A stretch of DNA of 64,000 nt, from UHGV virus genome UHGV-0033546; one strand, given 5' to 3'. Origin of the DNA: a virus. A model generated the notes under the pieces. The model made no database searches and was not told the origin of the DNA. It saw nothing but the letters and a program-made list of their open reading frames with translations. Each line of letters begins with the position of its first letter. Within the stretch, counting starts at the first letter, position 1. Below, piece by piece: positions 1,221 through 19,583 of this stretch. A program made the position numbers and the translations under genes.

Positions 1221-2648
1221 CTAAAATTTTAATTCATTTGCCAAAGCATCTAACTGAGCTCGAGCGGATTCGTTTCTTTGATAGCGGTTCTGTTCAGCTT
1301 GAATCTGCTGTGAACCTGCTACTTCGTTCACTTCGGTTGGAGTAGAATCTTGTTCAATTTCTACCCATTTCTGATTTCCTTTTTGAACACCCATCAAAAA
1401 CTTATTCCATTTATTCTTATCACCATATCGTGATTTGATTTGCTTAATGAGTTGTTGTTCAGCAGCTGCTAACTCTTCAGTTTCAATGACCGCAAGCATA
1501 AAATCGGCTGTCGCTGGAAGACCAGCAGATTCTGCTATATCACTCATGTTAACATCAGAAGAGTCCCAAGCTTGTTTACCAACCTGCGCTGCAGTCCAAA
1601 GAACAGTTTCAGTTTCAACAGCCAGAGCACGTAATTCCTCTGCAATAGCTTTAACAGTTGTGTAACTATTTTCTGAATAAACTCGGATGCGGCACGATTT
1701 ACAAATACCTAGATAGTCGACAATAATGATTGTTGGAACAAAATTCTTCTTGAGCTTCAATTCATTCAAGAGAGACCTGAATGTGTTAGCATCTGCTCCA
1801 CCAGTAGGATACTGTTTAACAATTAAACGACCGAGAGTAGATTTCTCACGCCATTTTTCCATTTTTCCTTTATACTCAGCGTAAGAAATATGCCCATCAT
1901 CAATGTCATCAAGAGAAACATCAAGCATATTAGCATCAATGCGCTTAGCACAGACTTCTTCTGCCATTTCCATGGAAATGTAAAGAACATTATGTCCAAG
2001 CTGCAAATAATCTGCTGCTAATGAACACAATCCTAATGACTTACCAACGTTAACACCAGCCATTAAAACGTTCAGTGTTCCAGTCTCAGCTCCGCCTTTA
2101 GTAATTTTATTCAGAATTTTGAGTCTAAATGGAACCTTACGAGCTTTATTCATATAAGATAGCCAACGTGCTTCGTAGTCATCCATCCAATCATGGCCAA
2201 CGTAGCTATCAAATGAAATTGATAATGCTTGACGCATGATGTCAGGAATAGCACCTACATCTGGCATTTTCTTATTTCGTTTTTCCGGAGGAAGCTCAGC
2301 ATTGGTTTGAATTTCAATTATTTTAGACGTAGCATTAAACATCGCCCTTTGCTGAACATATTTTTCTGTTTCTTTTACTAACCAACTGTGGTCTTCCGGA
2401 GAATCAGCTAGTTTTGAAATAAGTGTTTTTACACCAGAATATTCTGTTTCAGTAAATGAACTATTTTCTAATGCAACATTTAACGCATTAATAGATGGAA
2501 CGCTATGGTACTCATTGACATGAGATTTAATTAATTTGAATGTATTTTTAGCTGGACCACTTTCAAAATATTCTGAATCCATATATGGCCAAACTTTTGA
2601 AAAATAAGCTTGATCAAATATGAGATGAGAAAGAATAATTTCTACCAC
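1221..2648 (-). CDS. 41: gp41 replicative DNA helicase (DnaB-like), 475 aa
   Basis: Walker A GVNVGKS, DnaB-family architecture, 475 aa; GTG start at 2648 with strong AAGGAG SD; matches T4 gp41 sequence as recalled. Confidence 0.93.
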   Translation of the reverse strand: MVEIILSHLIFDQAYFSKVWPYMDSEYFESGPAKNTFKLIKSHVNEYHSVPSINALNVALENSSFTETEYSGVKTLISKLADSPEDHSWLVKETEKYVQQRAMFNATSKIIEIQTNAELPPEKRNKKMPDVGAIPDIMRQALSISFDSYVGHDWMDDYEARWLSYMNKARKVPFRLKILNKITKGGAETGTLNVLMAGVNVGKSLGLCSLAADYLQLGHNVLYISMEMAEEVCAKRIDANMLDVSLDDIDDGHISYAEYKGKMEKWREKSTLGRLIVKQYPTGGADANTFRSLLNELKLKKNFVPTIIIVDYLGICKSCRIRVYSENSYTTVKAIAEELRALAVETETVLWTAAQVGKQAWDSSDVNMSDIAESAGLPATADFMLAVIETEELAAAEQQLIKQIKSRYGDKNKWNKFLMGVQKGNQKWVEIEQDSTPTEVNEVAGSQQIQAEQNRYQRNESARAQLDALANELKF

Positions 2649-2657
2649 ACTTACTCC

Positions 2658-3002
2658 TTAAAAGAATTTAAATTTTTTCTTTGACCTTTTATTAAATGCA
2701 TCTTGTAGTTGCATTGTAATACATTTTTCTACATGAGGAGCTAACTCAGCTTTTCTTTCTTGGTCAAGAACAGCAAAGTCCATTACAACCTTTCCATCAA
2801 CCCAATCTAATTTTGTCACATACACAATGTGTGTAGAACCATCTTCTAGTTTAATGACAATCTCCTGGATAACATTTTCCATGGCAGATTTAATTATCTT
2901 AAGAGATTCATTAAAAAGACGTTCTTTTCTTTCTTCTTCCCCCTCCGAAGAGGGGGATTCATCGATAATTTCTAGATCTAAATCTAAATCATCTTTATTC
3001 AT
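2658..3002 (-). CDS. 40: gp40-like head-assembly protein, 114 aa
   Basis: ORF between uvsX and 41; ATG at 3002 gives 114 aa and a short overlap with the uvsX stop. Confidence 0.6.
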   Translation of the reverse strand: MNKDDLDLDLEIIDESPSSEGEEERKERLFNESLKIIKSAMENVIQEIVIKLEDGSTHIVYVTKLDWVDGKVVMDFAVLDQERKAELAPHVEKCITMQLQDAFNKRSKKKFKFF

Positions 3003-4176
3003 TAAATTCTTCCATATCACTTAACTGATCTAGGTCAGTTTCTAAATCAGCTGCTGATTTACTTTTACTTTCTGGAGATTTAAATTTTTCAACCTTTGAG
3101 TTAATCAATTCATCAACTTCAGCTTCAACAATTTCATTACTATCAATAGCACCTAATTGATAAGCACGTTTAATAGCATCTCGGAATGGCTGATGCTTAA
3201 ATAAAGGACCCCAGAATGTAGTGCAGTTGGTATCTTTTGCACGCCAAGATTTTTCTTCGCGAATCATCTCGCCGGTTTCTTCGTCAAGAAATTCACGAGC
3301 ATACCAGCCATTTTTTGGTTTTACCACAAATCCTAATTCAAGAGCCATATCTAACAATCCAGAATAAGGATCGATACCACCGTCAAATTTAACATCAATA
3401 AAGAATTTACTTTTTTCTTTAACAGTACGAGATTTTTCTACATTTAGAACAAATTGATACCCCTGAAGATCAGAACCATCTTTAATCTGGCGCTTACCGA
3501 TAATGAATACAGTATCAGCCGAATACATTACGCCTGTACCACCTGTCATCACGGTTTTACTAAACATTTCAATTGTTTCAATTGTATGGTTAACCGCAAC
3601 ACATGGAATATTTTTAATGCTAAAATAAGGAGTAACAATACGGAATAATGACTTCAGCGATTTAGCACGAGTCATATCTGCCACAGATTTTTCATTCAAG
3701 GCATCTTCCGTTTCTTTCTTAGAAGCCATATTACCGATTGAGTCGATGAATACAATAACCTTTTCACCACGCTCAATAGCTTCAAGCTGATTCACCATAT
3801 CAATTTTCAGCTGTTCAACTGACTGGATTGGCGTATGAATTACTCGTTCCGGGTCAACACCCATGGATCGCAAATAAGCTGGAGTAATACCAAATTCGCT
3901 ATCATAAAATAGACAAACCGCGTCAGGATATTTGTTCAAATACGCCGCAACCATAGTCAAAGACATATTTGATTTAAAGTGTTTAGAAGGACCTGCAAAA
4001 ATGGTTAAACCAGACTGCATACCACCATCAATCGCACCAGAAATAGCGATATTAAGCATTGGGATTTTTGTGCGAATTACATCCTTTTCATTAAAGAATT
4101 TAGATGTAGTCAGTTCAGCAGTCATTTTAGAAGTGGAAGCTTTAATCAAACGGGATTTTAAATCTGCAATAGACAT
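2995..4176 (-). CDS. uvsX: UvsX RecA-like recombinase, 393 aa
   Basis: RecA fold with Walker A GPSKHFKS; near-identical to T4 UvsX N-terminus and C-terminal acidic tail as recalled. Confidence 0.95.
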   Translation of the reverse strand: MSIADLKSRLIKASTSKMTAELTTSKFFNEKDVIRTKIPMLNIAISGAIDGGMQSGLTIFAGPSKHFKSNMSLTMVAAYLNKYPDAVCLFYDSEFGITPAYLRSMGVDPERVIHTPIQSVEQLKIDMVNQLEAIERGEKVIVFIDSIGNMASKKETEDALNEKSVADMTRAKSLKSLFRIVTPYFSIKNIPCVAVNHTIETIEMFSKTVMTGGTGVMYSADTVFIIGKRQIKDGSDLQGYQFVLNVEKSRTVKEKSKFFIDVKFDGGIDPYSGLLDMALELGFVVKPKNGWYAREFLDEETGEMIREEKSWRAKDTNCTTFWGPLFKHQPFRDAIKRAYQLGAIDSNEIVEAEVDELINSKVEKFKSPESKSKSAADLETDLDQLSDMEEFNE

Positions 4177-10517: not shown

Positions 10518-11477
10518 TCACTTCCACTGCATTTCACATGCTAATTGAATGAAAAGATATGCTAAATGTAATTCCGTATTAGCCGCAATTCCATGATACT
10601 GATTATTTTCACCAACAATTTCATACATACGAATAATACTTTGCGGAGTTACACGTGAATAAATTTCTTCGGCAAGTTTACCTACGAACCACGAATAATC
10701 AGCTGCATATTTTGGTGCTAAAGCTCTGAGTTGTTTAACATCTTTATTTTTGAGAGACTCAAGAACATCATCAATAGCACCACGATCGTTAGTAACCAAT
10801 GATAAAATACCAGCATCCAAAACACCTTTAGATGAATAACTATCGAGCTCACCAATAGTTTTACGAAAATCAGGAAAATTCTTTTTAACCAAAGCTGCTA
10901 CAACTTTCATATCAGCTATAGCAATTCCTTCATGCTTGCAGATTTCAGTCAATCGACGAATCATCTGCTTCATCATTTCAATTTTATCTTCATCAGTCGG
11001 TTGACCGAATGTAATAACTCGGCAGCGTGACTGAAGCGGTTTAATAATACCATCAATATTGTTAGCAGTAATAATAATACTACAGTTTGAACTATAAGCT
11101 TCCATAAAGGAACGAAGATGTCGCTGAGACTCTGCTAACCCTGAACGGTCAAATTCATCAATAACGATTACTTTTTGACGACCATCAAATGAAGCTGCAC
11201 TAGCAAAATTAGTCAAAGGACCACGAACGAAATCAATTTTACAATCTGACCCATTCACAAACATCATATCAGCATTTACATCATGACACAATGCTTTTGC
11301 TACAGTTGTTTTACCTGTTCCTGGAGAAGGAGAATGAAGAATAATATGTGGAATCTTACCTTTACTTGTAATAGATTTAAAGGTTTCTTTATCAAAGGCG
11401 GGAAGAATACATTCATCGATAGTAGATGGACGATATTTCTGTTCAAGAATGTGTTCTTTTTCATTTACAGTAATCAT
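10518..11477 (-). CDS. 44: gp44 clamp-loader ATPase (RFC-like), 319 aa
   Basis: Walker A GTGKTT, SRC motif; ATG at 11477 (MITVNEKEH) with GAGGAA SD; matches T4 gp44. Confidence 0.9.
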
Positions 11478-11507
11478 AATTTCCTCATTCAAGTTTTAGT
11501 GTAAATT

Positions 11508-11529
11508 ATAAAGGGCCGAAGCCCTTTAT
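11508..11529 (-). terminator. hairpin with UUCG tetraloop between 45 stop and 44 SD
   Basis: + strand ATAAAGGGC-CGAA-GCCCTTTAT; followed on transcript by UUUAUAAUUU. Confidence 0.45.
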
Positions 11530-12215
11530 TAAAAATCATGGGTAGAATCAGCTTCAAGAGCTACTACATAATTCGCGTGTTCACCTTCAAATTTAGCAGC
11601 ACCTTGTTTACCTTTTGCCCAGAGCAGAAGTTTATAATTTCCTGGTTGCATTTTCATATTTGCCATATTGATAATGAAATTAAATGTATTTTCACCATCA
11701 TAATCACCAAGATTCAAAGAATATTTAACACGGGTCAGAGCAGAATCTTCTACTTTATTAAAACCGTTAATTACGATTTTACCTTCTTTTACCGTGATAG
11801 CAATTGTATCAATTTGCAGACCACGAGATACACGCAACAGTTGTTGAAGGTCTTCAGCTTTAATTTCAGTAACAACAGATGCTACCGGGAATGGAATTGG
11901 TTTATTAGGAGCAACTACTGTACTCGGATCGGCTGCTGGCCAAAAAATTGTTGAACGAGCATCAGCAATTTTAATATTTCCATCTTCTGATTGGGAAATT
12001 TCTGCATCATCATTAACTAGGGACAGAATACCGAGAAAACCGTTCAAATCGTAAATTGCTACATCAAAATCAATAGTGTCAGAAATATTTGCTTCCGCAT
12101 AAGTTGTACCATTAACTGCGCGAGTCATAATAAATTGACCAGATTTAAGCATAATACCGGAGTTAATAGTAGCGAAATTTTTCAAAATATTCAGTGTGTC
12201 TTTAGATAATTTCAT
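11529..12215 (-). CDS. 45: gp45 sliding clamp, 228 aa
   Basis: 228 aa; sequence matches T4 gp45 as recalled; ATGA overlap with upstream endonuclease-like ORF. Confidence 0.9.
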   Translation of the reverse strand: MKLSKDTLNILKNFATINSGIMLKSGQFIMTRAVNGTTYAEANISDTIDFDVAIYDLNGFLGILSLVNDDAEISQSEDGNIKIADARSTIFWPAADPSTVVAPNKPIPFPVASVVTEIKAEDLQQLLRVSRGLQIDTIAITVKEGKIVINGFNKVEDSALTRVKYSLNLGDYDGENTFNFIINMANMKMQPGNYKLLLWAKGKQGAAKFEGEHANYVVALEADSTHDF

Positions 12216-13099
12216 TTCAATTTCCTATTTACATAATAGTTAGACCAGGACCGTACAGCACCCTGATAAGATTCGTCGTTAAACCCATTAGCTACTGCAA
12301 TTTTACGAAATTTATTATAACTCGGTTTTCCGTAAGCATGCCATAAAGATTTTAATTCATCTTCATGTTCAATCCAAGTTCCTCTAGCTTTAGATTTTCT
12401 AAATTTTGATTTGAATTCCGGTGAATTATTTCTAACAGTTGCTTGAATTGAAGCTCTCTGTCTTCTTTCAGCATTATTCCATAACTCTTTTTGAGATTTA
12501 GAAATTTTTGATTTTACACTTTCTGAATTCATTATATCACTAAACTTTTTAGCATAACTGCAATCAAGATATTTCAATTTCATCTTATTTGAAAGTTTAA
12601 GCTTTTTCTCATCGGTCCAGTGATTCTTCATTGAATTAGATATTTTGTATTTTACGTCAGAACTATGTTTGTAACCTTTACGAATACCAACATAATCGGG
12701 CGTAATTTCAGATTGCGAAAGCTTTACAATTTTTCCAGTTAAAACATTTTTATATGTTCCATATCCTTTAGCGCCAATTAAAGTATTTTCATCTGCGTAT
12801 GCTTTATTAAAATATTTTATATTACTTTTTGCTTTAACTTTTAATTGAAAAAATCTTTCCAATTTTCTTGGATCTAATATAGTTTCAGCTAAAATTTTGA
12901 CGGTATATTTAGTGGTTTTAATAAGCTCAAAATATTCATCGCTATAACTCGATGACACGCTTCCAGTATAAATCTTTCCAGCTGAATCAATTATATTTGT
13001 TCCATCGAAAATTGCGTCAATTTTCGAACCTATATAATAACATGGAAAAATATTTTTAGCTTCCCGCTCTGGAAAGCTAATAAGATATACTAAATTCAT
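12212..13099 (-). CDS. free-standing homing-endonuclease-like protein (degenerate GIY-YIG-like N-terminus plus C-terminal DNA-binding module), 295 aa
   Basis: N-terminal VYLIS...(12 aa)...YYIGS resembles the GIY-X10-12-YIG spacing but lacks an obvious catalytic Arg; C-terminal 110 aa homologous to the C-terminus of the HNH ORF at 15437-16291; ATGA overlaps with rpbA stop and 45 start. Confidence 0.5.
12212..13099 (-). mobile_element. putative homing-endonuclease gene insertion between rpbA and 45
   Basis: Endonuclease-like ORF wedged between two conserved replication/transcription genes with precise translational coupling. Confidence 0.4.
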
Positions 13100-13485
13100 T
13101 TATTAAAATCAGCCGCAATTGTTTCTGCAACAATTTGAGCAGCGACAATTAGACGTTCATCTGCATTACCACAATAATCATCTTCAAGGCGTTCACCACA
13201 TGAAGTCATAATAAATTTAGCACCGGCGTTTAAAGATTCTGTCGTATGTTTGCGCATTAGTTCAATCCATTTATTACTTACTTCACGATCGATAGCTTCA
13301 TAATACGCATAACGAGCAGGTGCAGATTTAATTTTATCCTGAATAATTTCCATTGCGTTTTCAGAAAGAGACAAAACCCATGCTCGACGAATTTTATTTT
13401 GGTTTTGTGGATTTGAATCAGAACGCACGTGTTTTGGCTGAATATCTTTTACATCAACAGTATAATTCACAGTAATTTTAGTCAT
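13096..13485 (-). CDS. rpbA: RpbA RNA polymerase-binding protein, 129 aa
   Basis: 129 aa, position upstream of 45, sequence consistent with T4 RpbA. Confidence 0.7.
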
Positions 13486-13494
13486 AATACACCT

Positions 13495-13683
13495 TTAGTC
13501 ATAATAATCAGTAACAGTCCAAGCTTCATTTCTGTTGGACATTATTTTCATATATTCTGCTTTAAATGCATTCTTAAGCATAGATTCAGTAACTATATGC
13601 TCTTCATTAGAAAAATTATTTCTCAGAATATATCGTTTTATTTCAGGAATAGTTAATAGATGCTGTCCAGTTGAATATTCCAT
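13495..13683 (-). CDS. hypothetical protein, 62 aa (45.2-like)
   Basis: 62-aa ORF with ATG at 13683 between 46 and rpbA. Confidence 0.5.
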   Translation of the reverse strand: MEYSTGQHLLTIPEIKRYILRNNFSNEEHIVTESMLKNAFKAEYMKIMSNRNEAWTVTDYYD

Positions 13684-13738
13684 GTTTTTCCTCCATAGAG
13701 ATTATACTCTAATAAATTAAAGCATAATCTCTTGTAAA

Positions 13739-15421
13739 TTAAACCATTACAGTAAATCGACCAACTTTCTTCATCTGAAGATGCTGACCATATTCTTGCG
13801 GGTCATGGTCTTTATGTGAAATTATAAAAACATTAGTGTTTTTCATTGAATTTATAATATTAGCTACACCTTTAATACCTTCAGCATCAAATGACCCGTC
13901 AAACACTTCATCGAGTATTAATGTACTAATACTAACACCAGATACAATAGAAGCAATATCACGCCAAGTAAATAAAAGAGCAATATCAATTCGCGCTTTT
14001 TCACCTTCACTAAATGAAGCATAACTAAAATCTTCACGACCACGGGATTTAATTGTTTCATTAAATTCTTCATCTAATGTAAACACATAATCCGCTTCCA
14101 TTATTTTAAGATAATGGTTAATCTGCTTATTAAATAATGGAATGTACTTTTTAATAATAGCACCTTTAATACCAGAATCTTTGAGCATATCAGTCAAAAT
14201 TCCTCTGTGGTATTTTTCCATTACTAAATTAGTTTTTGTTTTAACAATTTTATCAAGTTCTTCTTGAAGCAGTGCTATTTCATCAGCATGGTCAATAAAC
14301 TCGGATGATGCTTTTTCGATAGCCGCTTTAACTTTTTTAGCTTTATCTACTGTGGTGATTAAAGACTGCTTTTTATTGCGAATATCATTTGCCAACGTCT
14401 GTTGGGTTTTAATATTATCTCGGTATTCATCAACGAGAACTTTTAAATTATCACGATGTGTTGAAAGCTGTTCAAACGAATGTGTGCATTCAGAAACTTT
14501 ATCTTTAATTTTAGAAACAACTTTATCACCGGAACTTAATTGTGACAAACAGGTTGGACATAATCCACCTTCGTGATACATATTAATGACTTTATTATAC
14601 GAGTCAATTTTTGATTTAATTAAAAATGCTTCTTGACCGATTTTATTAAATGCATCAGTCGGGTCTTCATCCAAAACAATATTAACTAATCTTTCATTAG
14701 CTTCTTCTATTTCCGATTTTAGTGTTCTAGCTTCTTTTGCCAAATCATCATACATATTCTGTAGACGAGTAAGATTATCACCAGTTAATTTTTTCTGGCG
14801 TTCAACATTATCGTTATATATTTTAATTTGTTGGATAATACTGTCTTTTTTAACATCAAGCACTTGGTTCTGCGAATTTAATTCACGTATTAGTGCTTTA
14901 TTAAGCTTATCCATTTCAGCTAATGTTCCTACCTCAAGCAGGTCTTCCACAAGCTTTCTTCGCGCAGGGGTCGACAAACCCATGAAAGGGGTATACCCTG
15001 CTGTACCAAGGACAACAATCTGCTTGAAACTGGCATATGACATTCCGATAAGCTGTTCAAATTCTGCTTGGAAATCTTTACTGCTGGCAGATTCATTAAG
15101 ACGTGTACCGTTAACGGTGATTTCGAAAACGTTTGGTTTTTGTCCTCTTTTGATATAGTACTTTTTCTCATCATATTCCATCCACAATTCAACTAAAAGT
15201 TCTTTCTTATTTGTGCTGTTTATTAATTGGCCTTTCTTTACATCACGAAATGGCTTGCCAAAAAGCCCAAATGTGATGGCTTCTAACATAGTAGACTTAC
15301 CACCGCCATTTCGTCCAGTAATAAGAGTTTTTTGAACCTTATCTAATTGAATGTCAACTCCATTTTGACCAACTGACATTATATTTTTATATTTTACTCT
15401 ATTAAGTTTAAATGATTTCAT
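13739..15421 (-). CDS. 46: gp46 recombination endonuclease subunit (Rad50/SbcC-like ATPase), 560 aa
   Basis: Walker A GRNGGGKST, long coiled coil with CPTC zinc hook, C-terminal signature and Walker B; 560 aa as in T4. Confidence 0.9.
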   Translation of the reverse strand: MKSFKLNRVKYKNIMSVGQNGVDIQLDKVQKTLITGRNGGGKSTMLEAITFGLFGKPFRDVKKGQLINSTNKKELLVELWMEYDEKKYYIKRGQKPNVFEITVNGTRLNESASSKDFQAEFEQLIGMSYASFKQIVVLGTAGYTPFMGLSTPARRKLVEDLLEVGTLAEMDKLNKALIRELNSQNQVLDVKKDSIIQQIKIYNDNVERQKKLTGDNLTRLQNMYDDLAKEARTLKSEIEEANERLVNIVLDEDPTDAFNKIGQEAFLIKSKIDSYNKVINMYHEGGLCPTCLSQLSSGDKVVSKIKDKVSECTHSFEQLSTHRDNLKVLVDEYRDNIKTQQTLANDIRNKKQSLITTVDKAKKVKAAIEKASSEFIDHADEIALLQEELDKIVKTKTNLVMEKYHRGILTDMLKDSGIKGAIIKKYIPLFNKQINHYLKIMEADYVFTLDEEFNETIKSRGREDFSYASFSEGEKARIDIALLFTWRDIASIVSGVSISTLILDEVFDGSFDAEGIKGVANIINSMKNTNVFIISHKDHDPQEYGQHLQMKKVGRFTVMV

Positions 15422-15436
15422 TTTGTATCCAATTGT

Positions 15437-16291
15437 TCACAATGAAGAAAATTCTTTAACTAAAGCCTGTAATGAAGCCTCTATTGGATATCCATTCTTA
15501 ACTAACATTTTCCTAAACATCACATGTTTAGGACGATTATATGATATCCACAATTCATACAATTTATCTTTATTATCCCAATGATAGCCTTTTCGTCGAG
15601 ATGCTATATGAGCTTTTCTAATCTCCGGATTTTTCCAACTAGCAGCTACTGAATTTAATATAGCTATTTTATATTCAGGTTTTGATAAAGCAGCACGAAC
15701 AGCCTTTTGGTGTTTAATTTTATTTTCTTCGTTATTAAACCATTCCCTTGAAGCCATTGAAATTTTTTGTTTTGTTTTAAAATTATTTAATCTTTCTTTG
15801 TTATCTTTCCTATTTTTTGCTACTGAAAAATATTTTAATGCCCTTTCTCTAGCAACATTTCTATTTTGTGGATTTGAATAATACTGTTGAAGCCTTTTTG
15901 ATATTGTGTCACTTACATCCTGTCTTATAAAACTATATTCAGCAGCTATTAAATCAACTTCGGCTAAAGATAAATTTTTATATGTTTTTCCTGACATCAT
16001 TCTATTTAAAGCATTTAGCATTTTTCCATTTTTACCTTTTGCTAATAAGAAATGTGCTTTGAAATGATTAAAATGACTTAAATTAACTAAATTCCATGTA
16101 GATTTTAAATATTCAGGAAATATTGATTTAGGAAGCACGTGGTGTGCTTCCGTTTTACCTGGAGTTTTAACAGTTGAATTCATAGAAATAAAATTAATAT
16201 AAGACTTGGCGTCTTCTTCACTCAACGCTAATTTTTCAACTAATTCCTTTATTAAAAATTCATCATTAATATCAAGTTTAAAATTCTTCAC
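15437..16291 (-). CDS. HNH homing endonuclease (mob-like), 284 aa
   Basis: HNH signature AHHVLPKS...WNLVNLS...HFNHFKAH near N-terminus; basic repeat-rich C-terminus; GTG start at 16291 overlapping upstream stop. Confidence 0.65.
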   Translation of the reverse strand: MKNFKLDINDEFLIKELVEKLALSEEDAKSYINFISMNSTVKTPGKTEAHHVLPKSIFPEYLKSTWNLVNLSHFNHFKAHFLLAKGKNGKMLNALNRMMSGKTYKNLSLAEVDLIAAEYSFIRQDVSDTISKRLQQYYSNPQNRNVARERALKYFSVAKNRKDNKERLNNFKTKQKISMASREWFNNEENKIKHQKAVRAALSKPEYKIAILNSVAASWKNPEIRKAHIASRRKGYHWDNKDKLYELWISYNRPKHVMFRKMLVKNGYPIEASLQALVKEFSSL

Positions 16292-16551
16292 AAAAGATTC
16301 CTTTTAATGTATCTTTTAGACCATTCTATCATATCATCATAATCTAAAAAGTATTCATCAAATTCAGCCATGCAAACAACACCTTGTGCTGCTTTTGATG
16401 TGATATAAATTATTCCAACATATCTAGAATCTTCTTCGGTGTAATCAATATTTGCTATGAATTCATCATTAATGTCAAATGTCGAAAACTTCACAGTATG
16501 CATCCTTAATACAAGATATGGCTGTATCTTGTATTGATTTAGGTGTGTCAT
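16288..16551 (-). CDS. hypothetical protein, 87 aa (possibly shorter from ATG 16503)
   Basis: ATG at 16551; overlaps next upstream ORF by 77 nt in another frame; stop overlaps HNH start. Confidence 0.3.
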   Translation of the reverse strand: MTHLNQYKIQPYLVLRMHTVKFSTFDINDEFIANIDYTEEDSRYVGIIYITSKAAQGVVCMAEFDEYFLDYDDMIEWSKRYIKRNLL

Positions 16552-16738
16552 TATCTAAAATGTTGAAGTTAAAAGATACAGCCCAGTCAGTGCAGACCGT
16601 AACCTTTTTAATACAGTTATCTTCAACTTCTAGTGGTTCAAACCAGTATTCAATAATTTCTTTATGACCAATATCATCTTTTACTTCGCATTCAAAATGC
16701 TGACTCATCATAACATTTTTAAATTCATCAAAAGTCAT
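16475..16738 (-). CDS. hypothetical acidic protein, 87 aa
   Basis: ATG at 16738 in ATGA overlap with gene 47 stop. Confidence 0.4.
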   Translation of the reverse strand: MTFDEFKNVMMSQHFECEVKDDIGHKEIIEYWFEPLEVEDNCIKKVTVCTDWAVSFNFNILDNDTPKSIQDTAISCIKDAYCEVFDI

Positions 16739-17754
16739 TGTGTTGCCTCTACATATAACTGATTTGCATATTGAATAAGTGCTTCGCGATCAGAATCAGT
16801 GATGTCTGGAATTGCATTAATGTATTCTTCCATCAATGTCTGGAGAGATTGAACTTCAACTTCTTCACTATCATCTGACTCGACAGAGTTATCAATCTTT
16901 GACACAACTCGTAACGAATGCACAACTTTTTCTAGTTCGGATTCGAACTTCGTTAGATTTTTGTCTACTTCAGTTACTATAACACGTACTGATAGATTTG
17001 TAAAATCTTTATAGTCAATTTTCCCCTTAAATGGATATTGAATTCGACGATGCCAGGTGGTGTTGTTTGGAATAAATTCCATTCGTTCTGTTTCTGTATC
17101 AAACATCCAGAACCCGCGAGGGTCATTCTCGTCACCTGCAGTTAGTGTCCATGGTGTCCCAATATATCTGACGTTAGCAGCCTCAGAGATAGTATGGAAG
17201 TGACCAGACCACACCTCTTTATAAGTCTTAAGGAAATCAGGTTCAAGACCGTGAGATTTCATTCCTTTATAAAAATAAAATCCATTCAGTTCCCAGTGAC
17301 CGACACAAAAAGAAGCAGATGAAGTTTTGATATGCTCAAGAATTTCACCAGTATTTTCTTCGCACATCCAGGGAATTAAATCAATCAAACATCCGTCAAA
17401 ATCTACTGTGGTAGGCTTATCATATACTTTAACATTAGGATATTTAGCCAAAAGCTCAGTAGAAGCATTTGGATGCATTACATTTTTGTAGTGGAGATCG
17501 TGATTTCCTACAATAGTATGTAGGGTAATACCAGCATCATCAAGCATTTGAACTATTTCACGAGCGAACTCCATAGTTTTATGTGTGATTGCTTTTCGCA
17601 CATCAAAAATATCGCCATATTGAATCCATGTAGTAATTCCATTTTTCTTAGAATATTCTATCGCTTGTTTAATTCCATCAATTTGAATACCGCGAATCCA
17701 CTCATCATCAGCTTTAACACCTAAATGCCAATCACCTAAATTTAAAATTTTCAT
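16735..17754 (-). CDS. 47: gp47 recombination nuclease (Mre11/SbcD-like phosphoesterase), 339 aa
   Basis: Calcineurin-like phosphoesterase motifs (GDWH, GDIFD, GNHD, GHxH); 339 aa as in T4. Confidence 0.9.
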   Translation of the reverse strand: MKILNLGDWHLGVKADDEWIRGIQIDGIKQAIEYSKKNGITTWIQYGDIFDVRKAITHKTMEFAREIVQMLDDAGITLHTIVGNHDLHYKNVMHPNASTELLAKYPNVKVYDKPTTVDFDGCLIDLIPWMCEENTGEILEHIKTSSASFCVGHWELNGFYFYKGMKSHGLEPDFLKTYKEVWSGHFHTISEAANVRYIGTPWTLTAGDENDPRGFWMFDTETERMEFIPNNTTWHRRIQYPFKGKIDYKDFTNLSVRVIVTEVDKNLTKFESELEKVVHSLRVVSKIDNSVESDDSEEVEVQSLQTLMEEYINAIPDITDSDREALIQYANQLYVEATQ

Positions 17755-17914
17755 ATGTCAAGAACCGTCATTGAAATGCAAAATAAAATTATTGAAATAA
17801 ACCCATCTGGTGTGCTAAAGAACCCAATCCAACATGCTCTAGTGAATAAATAAAACGCGAGAAAAAGTATCACATATCCAAGAAATATCATTATATCAAA
17901 CTCCGTATAAAGCT

Positions 17915-17932
17915 AAAGGGCCGAAGCCCTTT
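17915..17932 (-). terminator. hairpin with UUCG tetraloop overlapping a-gt stop
   Basis: + strand AAAGGGC-CGAA-GCCCTTT; 7-bp stem. Confidence 0.45.
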
Positions 17933-19133
17933 ATTTTGTAATAATGTCAAACTGTTCTTTAAAGCAGAAGCTTGAATCTTGATGCTGATACAAAAATTCA
18001 TAAGCTTTTTCTCGCTCACGGTCATAAAGAGCTCGGTCAGATGACAGTTCTTTAATACGCTCGAATGTCGATTCCATGTCATTTTCGTCAAACCAAACGA
18101 TACCGCTATCATGAGAAATTAACGGAGTATTATCAACACGGAATTTTAAATTTTCGCCAGTAGATTTCCAAAATACCGGAATTGTTCCACACGCTCCAAG
18201 CTCGAGATGAGTATATTCTAAAGAACGTTGTAGATATTTTTTGTCCAACTTACTCAACTGATAACCAAAACCGGATTTACTCATGCGTTCAAGCATTTCG
18301 CTATTTACATAACGATCAAGAATTTGCGTTGGCAAATTAGGAGCAATTTTAATTTGGTCTACTTGATGAAGACGATAATACTCGTATGGAATTCCTTTTT
18401 CTTTAATAGGAATGAACGCTGGAGAACGTTCCAGACCTTCCATAATAGTACTTAGCCCAGCAGGTTTAAGATGTTTTTCGTGGAAATCAAACATCTGATA
18501 AAAACCTTTCCATGTAGTCGTACGACCAATCCAACGATTGACATTCATGTTAATTTTAGAAACATCTTTCCAGTAGGTTGATCGAACCTTCGCAATATCC
18601 ATAGGAGGCTGAAAGTTGTATACAGTCGGTGCTTCTTCAATATCATCAAACAGAGAAACCGTTTCTGGATACCATTCTTTCATCAAAACTTTATTAAAAT
18701 CGCCATTATCAGAATGACTAAAAATAACATCAGCTCGACGAACAGTTTCTTCTAATCCCAAATTTCGACGCAAAGAAAGAGAAGAATGGTCATGTTGATA
18801 AACTACAACACGAACCGAAGGTTTAATGTTATCAATAATTTTTTTATAGTTATTAATAGTGTCTTCTTCGACTGAAGTAGCAGGAACTGAATTGATAATT
18901 AGAATATCACAATCATTTACCAGCTTAAGCGTTTTATCATATTCTTTTGCCAATAAAACCGGAATTGAAAATGATTTATAATCATGTGCGCAATTACGAG
19001 TAAATGATTTATCTTTAGCATAAACCAAAGTTACTTCATGACCATTTTTAATAAACCAATCACGTTGCTCGAGAGAAAATTTAGTTACACCACAACCTTC
19101 AAGACCCCGAGCCATAAAAATACATACTTTCAT
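17931..19133 (-). CDS. a-gt: alpha-glucosyltransferase (DNA hmC alpha-glucosylation), 400 aa
   Basis: 400 aa; sequence close to T4 alpha-gt as recalled. Confidence 0.9.
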   Translation of the reverse strand: MKVCIFMARGLEGCGVTKFSLEQRDWFIKNGHEVTLVYAKDKSFTRNCAHDYKSFSIPVLLAKEYDKTLKLVNDCDILIINSVPATSVEEDTINNYKKIIDNIKPSVRVVVYQHDHSSLSLRRNLGLEETVRRADVIFSHSDNGDFNKVLMKEWYPETVSLFDDIEEAPTVYNFQPPMDIAKVRSTYWKDVSKINMNVNRWIGRTTTWKGFYQMFDFHEKHLKPAGLSTIMEGLERSPAFIPIKEKGIPYEYYRLHQVDQIKIAPNLPTQILDRYVNSEMLERMSKSGFGYQLSKLDKKYLQRSLEYTHLELGACGTIPVFWKSTGENLKFRVDNTPLISHDSGIVWFDENDMESTFERIKELSSDRALYDREREKAYEFLYQHQDSSFCFKEQFDIITK

Positions 19134-19183
19134 TTAATATCCTCATTGTTTTGGTTTATTTTACCAAAAATTTATAAAGCAAT

Positions 19184-19203
19184 ATAGGAGCCGAAGCTCC
19201 TAT
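19184..19203 (-). terminator. hairpin with UUCG tetraloop upstream of a-gt (8-bp stem, U-rich tail)
   Basis: + strand ATAGGAGC-CGAA-GCTCCTAT. Confidence 0.45.
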
Positions 19204-19376
19204 CCACATAATACACCATACAGAGGCTCATTAGAGCTTCTAAATTTTATACGCTTATATGTTATAGTTCCTTCTGCTTTAGCTTTATCATGAGACTCTT
19301 TAAAGCGTCTCATCATTTCTACTTTAGAGGAACGAATTTTATTATAATCTATTTCACAAGTCTGGGCGTTCATCTT

Positions 19377-19583
19377 TCACAGCTGCCACCATTTTTTGAC
19401 TTGATAAGAATCAACCCACACTTTCATATTAGGGTCTGCTCTTACAATAGGAGGATTAACTTCTTTAATTGAACTATCATGGTATTCTTTTTCAGAAATT
19501 TTCACACAAAGATGACCGTTCAAAGATTCAGTAAATCCTGCATTAATTTTAAGACGCTTGAATTTTACGTGTGTAAGCATCAA
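19377..19583 (-). CDS. hypothetical protein, 68 aa
   Basis: Track ORF in the a-gt to 55 interval. Confidence 0.35.
   Translation of the reverse strand: MMLTHVKFKRLKINAGFTESLNGHLCVKISEKEYHDSSIKEVNPPIVRADPNMKVWVDSYQVKKWWQL

Follow-up and report, generated by a model that had tools for sequence, protein, structure and literature searches.

A probable Mob-family HNH homing endonuclease gene occupies the translation start of recombination gene 46 in a T2/T6-like phage genome

The mobE gene of phage T4 is a free-standing endonuclease gene without a promoter of its own, whose start overlaps the stop codon of nrdA and whose product nicks the 5′ region of the gene downstream (PMC2790892, PMC2988022). 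Nicking is abolished if the HNH motif of MobE is deleted (PMC2790892). Here, we investigated a locus of similar layout, the region 15437-16738 of a 64,000-nucleotide stretch of DNA (in the following the window) from the UHGV virus genome UHGV-0033546. It contains an open reading frame (ORF) of 284 amino acids that lies, as a first-pass annotation of the window had placed it, between genes 46 (13739-15421) and 47 (16735-17754), which encode the subunits of a Rad50/Mre11-like recombination nuclease. We are confident that this ORF represents a free-standing Mob-family HNH homing endonuclease gene (HEG) that was inserted at the junction of genes 46.1 and 46, where it occupies the native ribosome-binding site and start codon of its essential neighbor, gene 46.

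An alignment with T4 is interrupted only around the 284-amino-acid ORF. The window is longer than T4 by 870 bp, exactly at the 46.1/46 junction, and the flanks of this insert share 96-98% identity with T4. T4 gene 46 begins with GTGAAGAATTTTAAACTT followed by AATAGAG; its GTG start codon overlaps the stop codon of 46.1 (GTGA), with AAGGA-N7 in front of it. In the window, the same start belongs to the ORF, which begins with MKNFKL followed by DINDEF: its first 18 nucleotides and the AAGGA Shine-Dalgarno sequence are those of native gene 46. Gene 46 itself resumes 15 nucleotides past the ORF stop with a new ATG, reading ATGAAATCATTTAAACTT followed by AATAGAG. The mobile unit therefore consists of the ORF, the 15-nucleotide spacer, and the rebuilt gene 46 start:

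15437-16291, minus strand: probable free-standing Mob-type HNH homing endonuclease ORF of 284 amino acids, GTG start and TGA stop (PHROG, tblastn, hhalign, and AlphaFold2 (AF2))
16274-16291, minus strand: first six codons of the ORF, GTGAAGAATTTTAAACTT (MKNFKL), identical to the native T4 gene 46 start; captured start codon (alignment with the T4 junction)
15422-15436, minus strand: 15-nucleotide spacer ACAATTGGATACAAA, part of the insert and absent in T4, with a weak ribosome-binding site serving the new gene 46 ATG
15404-15421, minus strand: rebuilt gene 46 start, ATGAAATCATTTAAACTT (MKSFKL), an imperfect direct repeat (13/18) of 16274-16291

The insert is thus bounded by an imperfect 18-nucleotide direct repeat, within which the 9-nucleotide sequence TTTAAACTT is exact at both edges. 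Judged from the sequence, recombination between the two TTTAAACTT copies would regenerate the exact T4 arrangement. The only change that the insertion causes in gp46 is N3S. Since the ATGAAATCATTTAAA of the rebuilt start matches the gene 46 start of the Mosigvirus RB69, there is a hint that the cassette may have arrived with a little foreign flank.

The first-pass annotation had described a larger element, in which the 284-amino-acid ORF and two overlapping ORFs of 87 amino acids together form a cassette of about 1.3 kb between genes 46 and 47, which it took to be adjacent in T4. This reading is supported by phage HP3.2, in which genes 46 and 47 are adjacent and neither small ORF is present. 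T4, however, carries 46.1 and 46.2 between the two genes, with 46.1 joined to 46 by the GTGA overlap and no intervening ORF. Both small genes also occur without the HNH ORF in RB3, RB27, RB69, VR20, and about 446 insert-free records, and each has its own Pfam family named from T4 (DUF5487 for 46.1, T4_Y03C for 46.2). Together with the alignment, which breaks only at the 284-amino-acid ORF and leaves 870 bp of extra DNA, this refutes the large cassette: 46.1 and 46.2 are resident genes. Moreover, 46.1 is annotated with 68 amino acids from a GTG start instead of the 87 assumed previously, so that its overlap with 46.2 is 20 rather than 77 nucleotides.

On the minus strand, the order of transcription is gene 47, 46.2, 46.1, the 284-amino-acid ORF, and gene 46. 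The resident genes of this string are:

16735-17754, minus strand: gene 47, Mre11/SbcD-like subunit of 339 amino acids, head of the 47-46.2-46.1-HEG-46 string (ORF call, Pfam, T4 annotation)
16475-16738, minus strand: gene 46.2, 87 amino acids, resident and outside the insert (Pfam T4_Y03C, 6e-42; PHROG 2192; T4 annotation)
16288-16494, minus strand: gene 46.1, 68 amino acids, GTG start, resident and outside the insert (Pfam DUF5487, 2e-48; PHROG 2327; T4 annotation)
13739-15421, minus strand: gene 46, Rad50/SbcC-like recombination nuclease subunit of 560 amino acids, downstream of the insert (ORF call, Pfam, T4 annotation)

The chaining of these genes by short overlaps had been noted before. 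We found the ATGA at 16735-16738 (stop of gene 47, start of 46.2) and the GTGA at 16288-16291 (stop of 46.1, start of the 284-amino-acid ORF), but the chain is not unbroken, because the 15 nucleotides at 15422-15436 separate the ORF stop from the gene 46 ATG. The window as a whole belongs to a T2/T6-like Tequatrovirus. It is identical to none of the records searched, the closest being phage EC121 (97.5% over 14 kb), and the locus shows ∼98% identity to T6 and T2.

Two side observations concern the resident genes. In phage HP3.2 (OP978391), a Tequatrovirus obtained by directed evolution in vitro, 46.1 and 46.2 are both missing and genes 46 and 47 are only 44 bp apart, indicating that the two small genes are dispensable. 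In KarlGJung, RB3, RB27, and KMB39, gene 46 is annotated from an internal methionine, Met15 (ATGTCAGT...), leaving a gap of 38 nucleotides after 46.1. The same choice is made in many records, in which the GTG overlapping the 46.1 stop was apparently overlooked as the start.

Assignment of the ORF to the Mob family is based on several independent comparisons. It matches PHROG 655 “homing endonuclease” (1e-44) and PHROG 12434 “HNH endonuclease” (5e-15). By tblastn, it retrieves T4 MobC (35% identity, 1e-21) and MobD (30%, 6e-11) as well as MobE-like genes, and a profile of the family aligned by hhalign with T4 MobE at a probability of 99.4% (E value 1.7e-21). A profile search of 1.84 billion representative proteins returned 8411 relatives at E≤1e-3. 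The HNH signature that had first drawn attention to the ORF (EAHHVLPKS...WNLVNLS...HFNHFKAH) is present, and two alignments, comprising 81 and 87 diverse homologues, show no variation at its residues H50, H51, N67, H76, and H80. In a five-way alignment, the same five residues are in register with MobC, MobD, and MobE, the latter showing the pattern HH..N..H..H. AF2 models, with a predicted local distance difference test score (pLDDT) of 94 over the full length and 90 for residues 1-110, place these residues in a core consisting of a strand (47-51), a second strand (68-72), and a helix (73-84), which is followed by a long run of short helices:

16040-16153, minus strand: predicted core of the HNH (beta-beta-alpha-metal) type, residues 47-84 (homologue alignments, MobC/D/E alignment, AF2 secondary structure)

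Some results speak against this assignment. The ORF had no HNH match in Pfam or NCBIfam, the very outcome that the first-pass annotation had named as contradicting an HNH endonuclease. When the protein and the family profile were searched against PDB sequences, nothing relevant was returned, and no PDB entry directly matches the 284-amino-acid protein in sequence or structure. Our literature searches found no paper describing the gene. The negative domain scans are overturned by the PHROG matches and the profile-profile match to MobE. The Pfam HNH cut-off is 21.4 bits, a value that T4 MobE itself barely exceeds (21.5) and MobD does not reach (18.2). Among the 81 homologues, Pfam detected NUMOD3 in 26, the I-HmuI NUMOD-like domain in seven, and HNH (PF01844) in five. 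The gene has not gone unnoticed in the databases: in GenBank and RefSeq, it already appears as “homing endonuclease” or “MobD-like” in several records.

An intron-encoded endonuclease was considered and rejected. An Rfam scan of 11000-19500 returned no family at threshold, and so no group I intron, and gene 46 is a continuous ORF of 560 amino acids.

The distribution of the insert was determined in 519 phage records matching the flanks. It is present in about 71 of them (∼14%), while about 446 show an uninterrupted 46.1/46 junction. T6 carries an intact copy, labeled “homing endonuclease” in RefSeq, and most of the copies sampled are full length. Decayed copies were also found. In T2 (LC348380, 4138-4990), a 2-bp deletion (AA), corresponding to window positions 15682-15683, shifts the reading frame and leads to a stop after about 205 amino acids; the remains are annotated as two hypothetical ORFs, T2_055 and T2_056. 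RB68 harbors a truncated copy with a product of 208 amino acids. Outside the Tequatrovirus, Mosigvirus AV112 (2444-3304) and nine other records contain a homologue of 45% identity directly upstream of gene 46. This homologue replaces the body of 46.1 and opens with the first seven 46.1 codons (MTKTDYE), so that both the Tequatrovirus and the Mosigvirus HEG lineages start with the initiation region of a displaced neighbor. About 150 Mosigvirus records, including RB69, lack this homologue. Such a pattern, with patchy presence, copies in decay, and one and the same site used in different genera, bears the hallmarks of an HEG and hence supports the identification as such. Taken together with the homology to MobC, MobD, and MobE, the invariant H-H-N-H-H residues, and the predicted beta-beta-alpha core, these data bear out the earlier proposal of an HNH homing endonuclease gene in the 46-47 operon.

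The decayed copies in T2 and RB68 raise the question of whether the gene in the window is itself a relic, open but immobile because the enzyme is inactive or its targets are gone, and persisting only by linkage to the essential gene 46. Consistent with this, the copies are 98% identical across phages, and the six synonymous and four nonsynonymous differences between the window and T6 reveal no clear purifying selection. Deletion of the element may also be slow, because a precise loss must leave gene 46 with a functional start. On the other hand, all residues of the catalytic motif are intact, the protein matches MobD and the Mosigvirus homologue over its full length, from end to end, and full-length copies predominate in the sample. 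Precise loss should be easy through the 9/18-bp direct repeat, restoring the exact T4 sequence. We therefore regard a relic as improbable and lean toward a product that is currently active in homing.

How could the gene be expressed from within the recombination operon? The late-promoter box TATAAATA is absent from 13600-19300. Sigma-70-like matches numbered 35, compared with 27 ± 5 in shuffled sequences, and are thus not clearly above the level expected, and MotA-box-like sites were confined to gene 47 and to the regions upstream of a-gt and of 45.2. As no late-promoter box occurs in 13600-19300, we infer that the HEG has no promoter of its own and is co-transcribed with 47-46.2-46.1-46. The ORF is preceded by the native AAGGA-N7-GTG, and its translation is probably coupled to that of 46.1 at the GTGA overlap, making use of the former ribosome-binding site of gene 46.

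A GC-rich perfect hairpin (GGAAGCAC-loop-GTGCTTCC; 16131-16151) coincides with the HNH codons E-A-H-H-V-L-P, with a local fold of about -15.6 kcal/mol. It is kept in T6 and T2, is not found in the Mosigvirus homologue, and is probably incidental. A function as an internal terminator like that of mobE was rejected, because the coding strand has no U tract at this position and the hairpin is absent in the AV112 homologue.

Based on these observations and by analogy to T4 mobE, we propose the following mechanism. The HEG would be transcribed as part of the 47-46.2-46.1-46 string, with its translation coupled to that of 46.1 in the manner described for mobE. When an HEG-free relative infects the same cell, the enzyme would nick or cut the DNA of this relative at or close to the 5′ end of gene 46, and recombination-dependent repair would copy the HEG together with adjacent markers, including the flanking sequence described below, into the broken genome.

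Residence in an operon of Mre11/Rad50-like genes also allows a different interpretation, namely that the HNH nuclease benefits the phage without copying itself, either by attacking the genomes of competitors or by introducing recombinogenic nicks in cooperation with gp46 and gp47. The gene is embedded in this operon and probably co-expressed with it, and the related endonuclease SegB was reported to help T6 by amplifying anti-defence genes (PMC13096335). Most relatives, however, manage without the gene. Its sporadic spread (∼14%) and the decayed copies are more in keeping with a selfish element, as is the presence of a distinct homologue at this site in a second genus. We consider a purely beneficial role very unlikely.

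The sequence adjoining the insert on the gene 46 side exists in two versions, which we refer to as patch A (T4-type) and patch B (RB3-type). Patch B differs from patch A at 13 positions between nucleotides +18 and +63 of gene 46, compared with zero differences in the 100 nucleotides upstream and few downstream. The divergent patch begins at the insertion point:

15359-15404, minus strand: patch A, nucleotides +18 to +63 of gene 46 (46 nucleotides); candidate target or immunity determinant

We counted the alleles in Tequatrovirus by searches with 80-nucleotide allele-specific sequences:

HEG present, patch A: about 71 records
HEG present, patch B: 0 records
HEG absent, patch A: about 72 records
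HEG absent, patch B: about 360 records

The same three classes occur in Mosigvirus, with ten HEG-containing records that are patch-A-like, five HEG-free records that are patch-A-like, and the rest patch-B-like.

We favor, at roughly even confidence, the explanation that patch B is the sensitive target and that patch A is resistant to cleavage, since the donors of MobE, SegF, and SegG are protected by polymorphisms. It is somewhat unlikely that the target is instead the uninterrupted T4-type junction, which would be split by the insertion. The remaining alternative is that the patch is only a hitch-hiking mosaic. Several points argue for caution about a role of the patch in cleavage. The records are phylogenetically related, so that the linkage of 71 to 0 does not represent 71 independent events. 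The patch is the densest divergence within genes 46-47, but a-gt holds patches that are equally dense or denser. Patch A could thus be ordinary mosaicism that was carried along with the insert. In addition, where cleavage by free-standing T4 endonucleases has been mapped in published work, the distance to the gene ranges from tens to thousands of bp (PMC2988022), which means that an adjacent patch need not be the target.

With regard to a-gt (18150-19000), dense patches separate the window, T4, T6, and RB3 in this gene, with up to 21 differences in 46 nucleotides, a pattern of local mosaicism that has no connection with the HEG.

Returning to patch A as the resistant and patch B as the sensitive allele, we tentatively suggest, at less than even confidence, that the patch is the recognition and immunity determinant of an endonuclease lineage kept in two genera, and that the HEG drives replacement of the gene 46 allele in mixed infections. 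If so, the HEG-free T4-type phages with patch A would have survived by retaining or acquiring the immune allele, having either lost the HEG or never gained it. Since the native translation start of gene 46 now belongs to the HEG, expression of the Rad50-like subunit, which is needed for the repair step of homing, would at the same time be linked to the HEG.

The part of the protein that follows the HNH core presumably contacts the DNA:

15440-15967, minus strand: basic, all-helical C-terminal region, residues 109-283, presumed DNA-binding module (AF2 helices, isoelectric point (pI), NUMOD3 in homologues, MobD alignment)

This C-terminus had been described as basic and repeat-rich. Its basic character was confirmed, with a pI of 9.9 for the whole protein and 10.3 for residues 109-235. 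Internal repeats, in contrast, were not significant: in an ungapped self-comparison, the best 30-amino-acid match scored 20, compared with a mean of 18.5 in shuffled sequences. The AF2 model contains seven short helices across residues 109-232. The ORF itself gave no NUMOD3 match in Pfam; its C-terminal half appears to resemble the NUMOD3 and MobD DNA-binding modules. A modular build of this kind is usual among phage homing endonucleases.

The C-terminal helical tail is common to the 284-amino-acid ORF, MobD, and a Seg-like ORF of 295 amino acids in the neighborhood. Homology extends over the C-terminal halves of all three, with 27% identity (E value 2e-12) between the two ORFs. The 295-amino-acid ORF (12212-13099, minus strand) is located between gene 45 and rpbA, to which it is chained by 4-nucleotide overlaps. 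It is present in 25 of 521 records and absent from T4, T2, and T6. It matches PHROG 655 and PHROG 7504 “homing endonuclease”, and a GIY-YIG-like motif (“VYLI...YYIGS”) can be recognized by eye, with no support from Pfam, NCBIfam, or the PDB. The genes rpbA-45.2-46 are thus bracketed by the 295- and the 284-amino-acid elements.

The gene adds an uncharacterised, intact Mob-type endonuclease of an otherwise ordinary kind to the T-even toolkit. It provides a clean case of an HEG seizing an essential neighbor's ribosome-binding site and start codon, and the product of this displaced neighbor, gene 46, belongs to the Mre11/Rad50-like nuclease by which the breaks required for homing are processed. 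The candidate target is concrete, comprising the 46.1/46 junction and the first ∼65 nucleotides of gene 46, and natural alleles that may be regarded as “sensitive”, “immune”, and “HEG-lost” already exist in sequenced phages such as RB3, T4, and T6. The capture of the start codon and the patch linked to the gene are of modest interest and open the target to direct testing.

In comparison with known systems, T4 MobE shares with the 284-amino-acid protein a homologous N-terminal HNH domain. Both genes are free-standing, and in both the start overlaps the stop codon of the upstream gene. Each is located directly upstream of an essential gene, the 5′ region of which is nicked in the case of MobE (PMC2790892). 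The absence of a promoter was demonstrated for mobE, and none was detected here. MobE differs in its size of 141 amino acids, lacking most of the long C-terminal region, and in its position in an intergenic slot between nrdA and nrdB, which leaves the start codon of the neighbor untouched. It also contains a functional internal terminator hairpin 27 nucleotides after the AUG, whereas the hairpin described above lies 140 nucleotides into the gene, has no U tract, and is not conserved. Finally, the activity of MobE has been demonstrated, while that of the 284-amino-acid product is predicted.

Similarity to MobD and MobC extends over the full length of the proteins, with 30-35% identity, and the C-terminal tail “GxHW..D.LY..W...N.PK...F......GYP” is common to the new protein and MobD. 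To our knowledge, neither MobD nor MobC has been characterised experimentally. They occupy other insertion sites, mobD in the nrdC/tk region and mobC between nrdD and nrdG. The HNH nicking endonuclease I-HmuI of phage SPO1 is alike in principle, combining an N-terminal HNH domain with an extended, helical NUMOD-like DNA-binding region, but is encoded in a group I intron, none of which was detectable around the 284-amino-acid ORF.

The “intronless homing” of SegF and SegG in crosses of T4 and T2 resembles the situation proposed here in that a free-standing gene lies between conserved genes and is absent from close relatives; localized marker exclusion and co-conversion of flanking polymorphisms would be expected in both cases (PMC2988022). 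The Seg proteins, however, are GIY-YIG enzymes that cleave hundreds of bp away, whereas the gene described here encodes an HNH protein and its candidate patch abuts the insert. T4 mobA, located between genes 39 and 60, and mobE of Aeromonas phage Aeh1, which splits nrdA (PMC3045599), provide precedents for insertions that alter the coding architecture of an essential neighbor instead of lying in neutral spacer DNA. In contrast to these, gene 46 remains unsplit: the insertion duplicates no more than its first six codons and exchanges its translation start for a new one.

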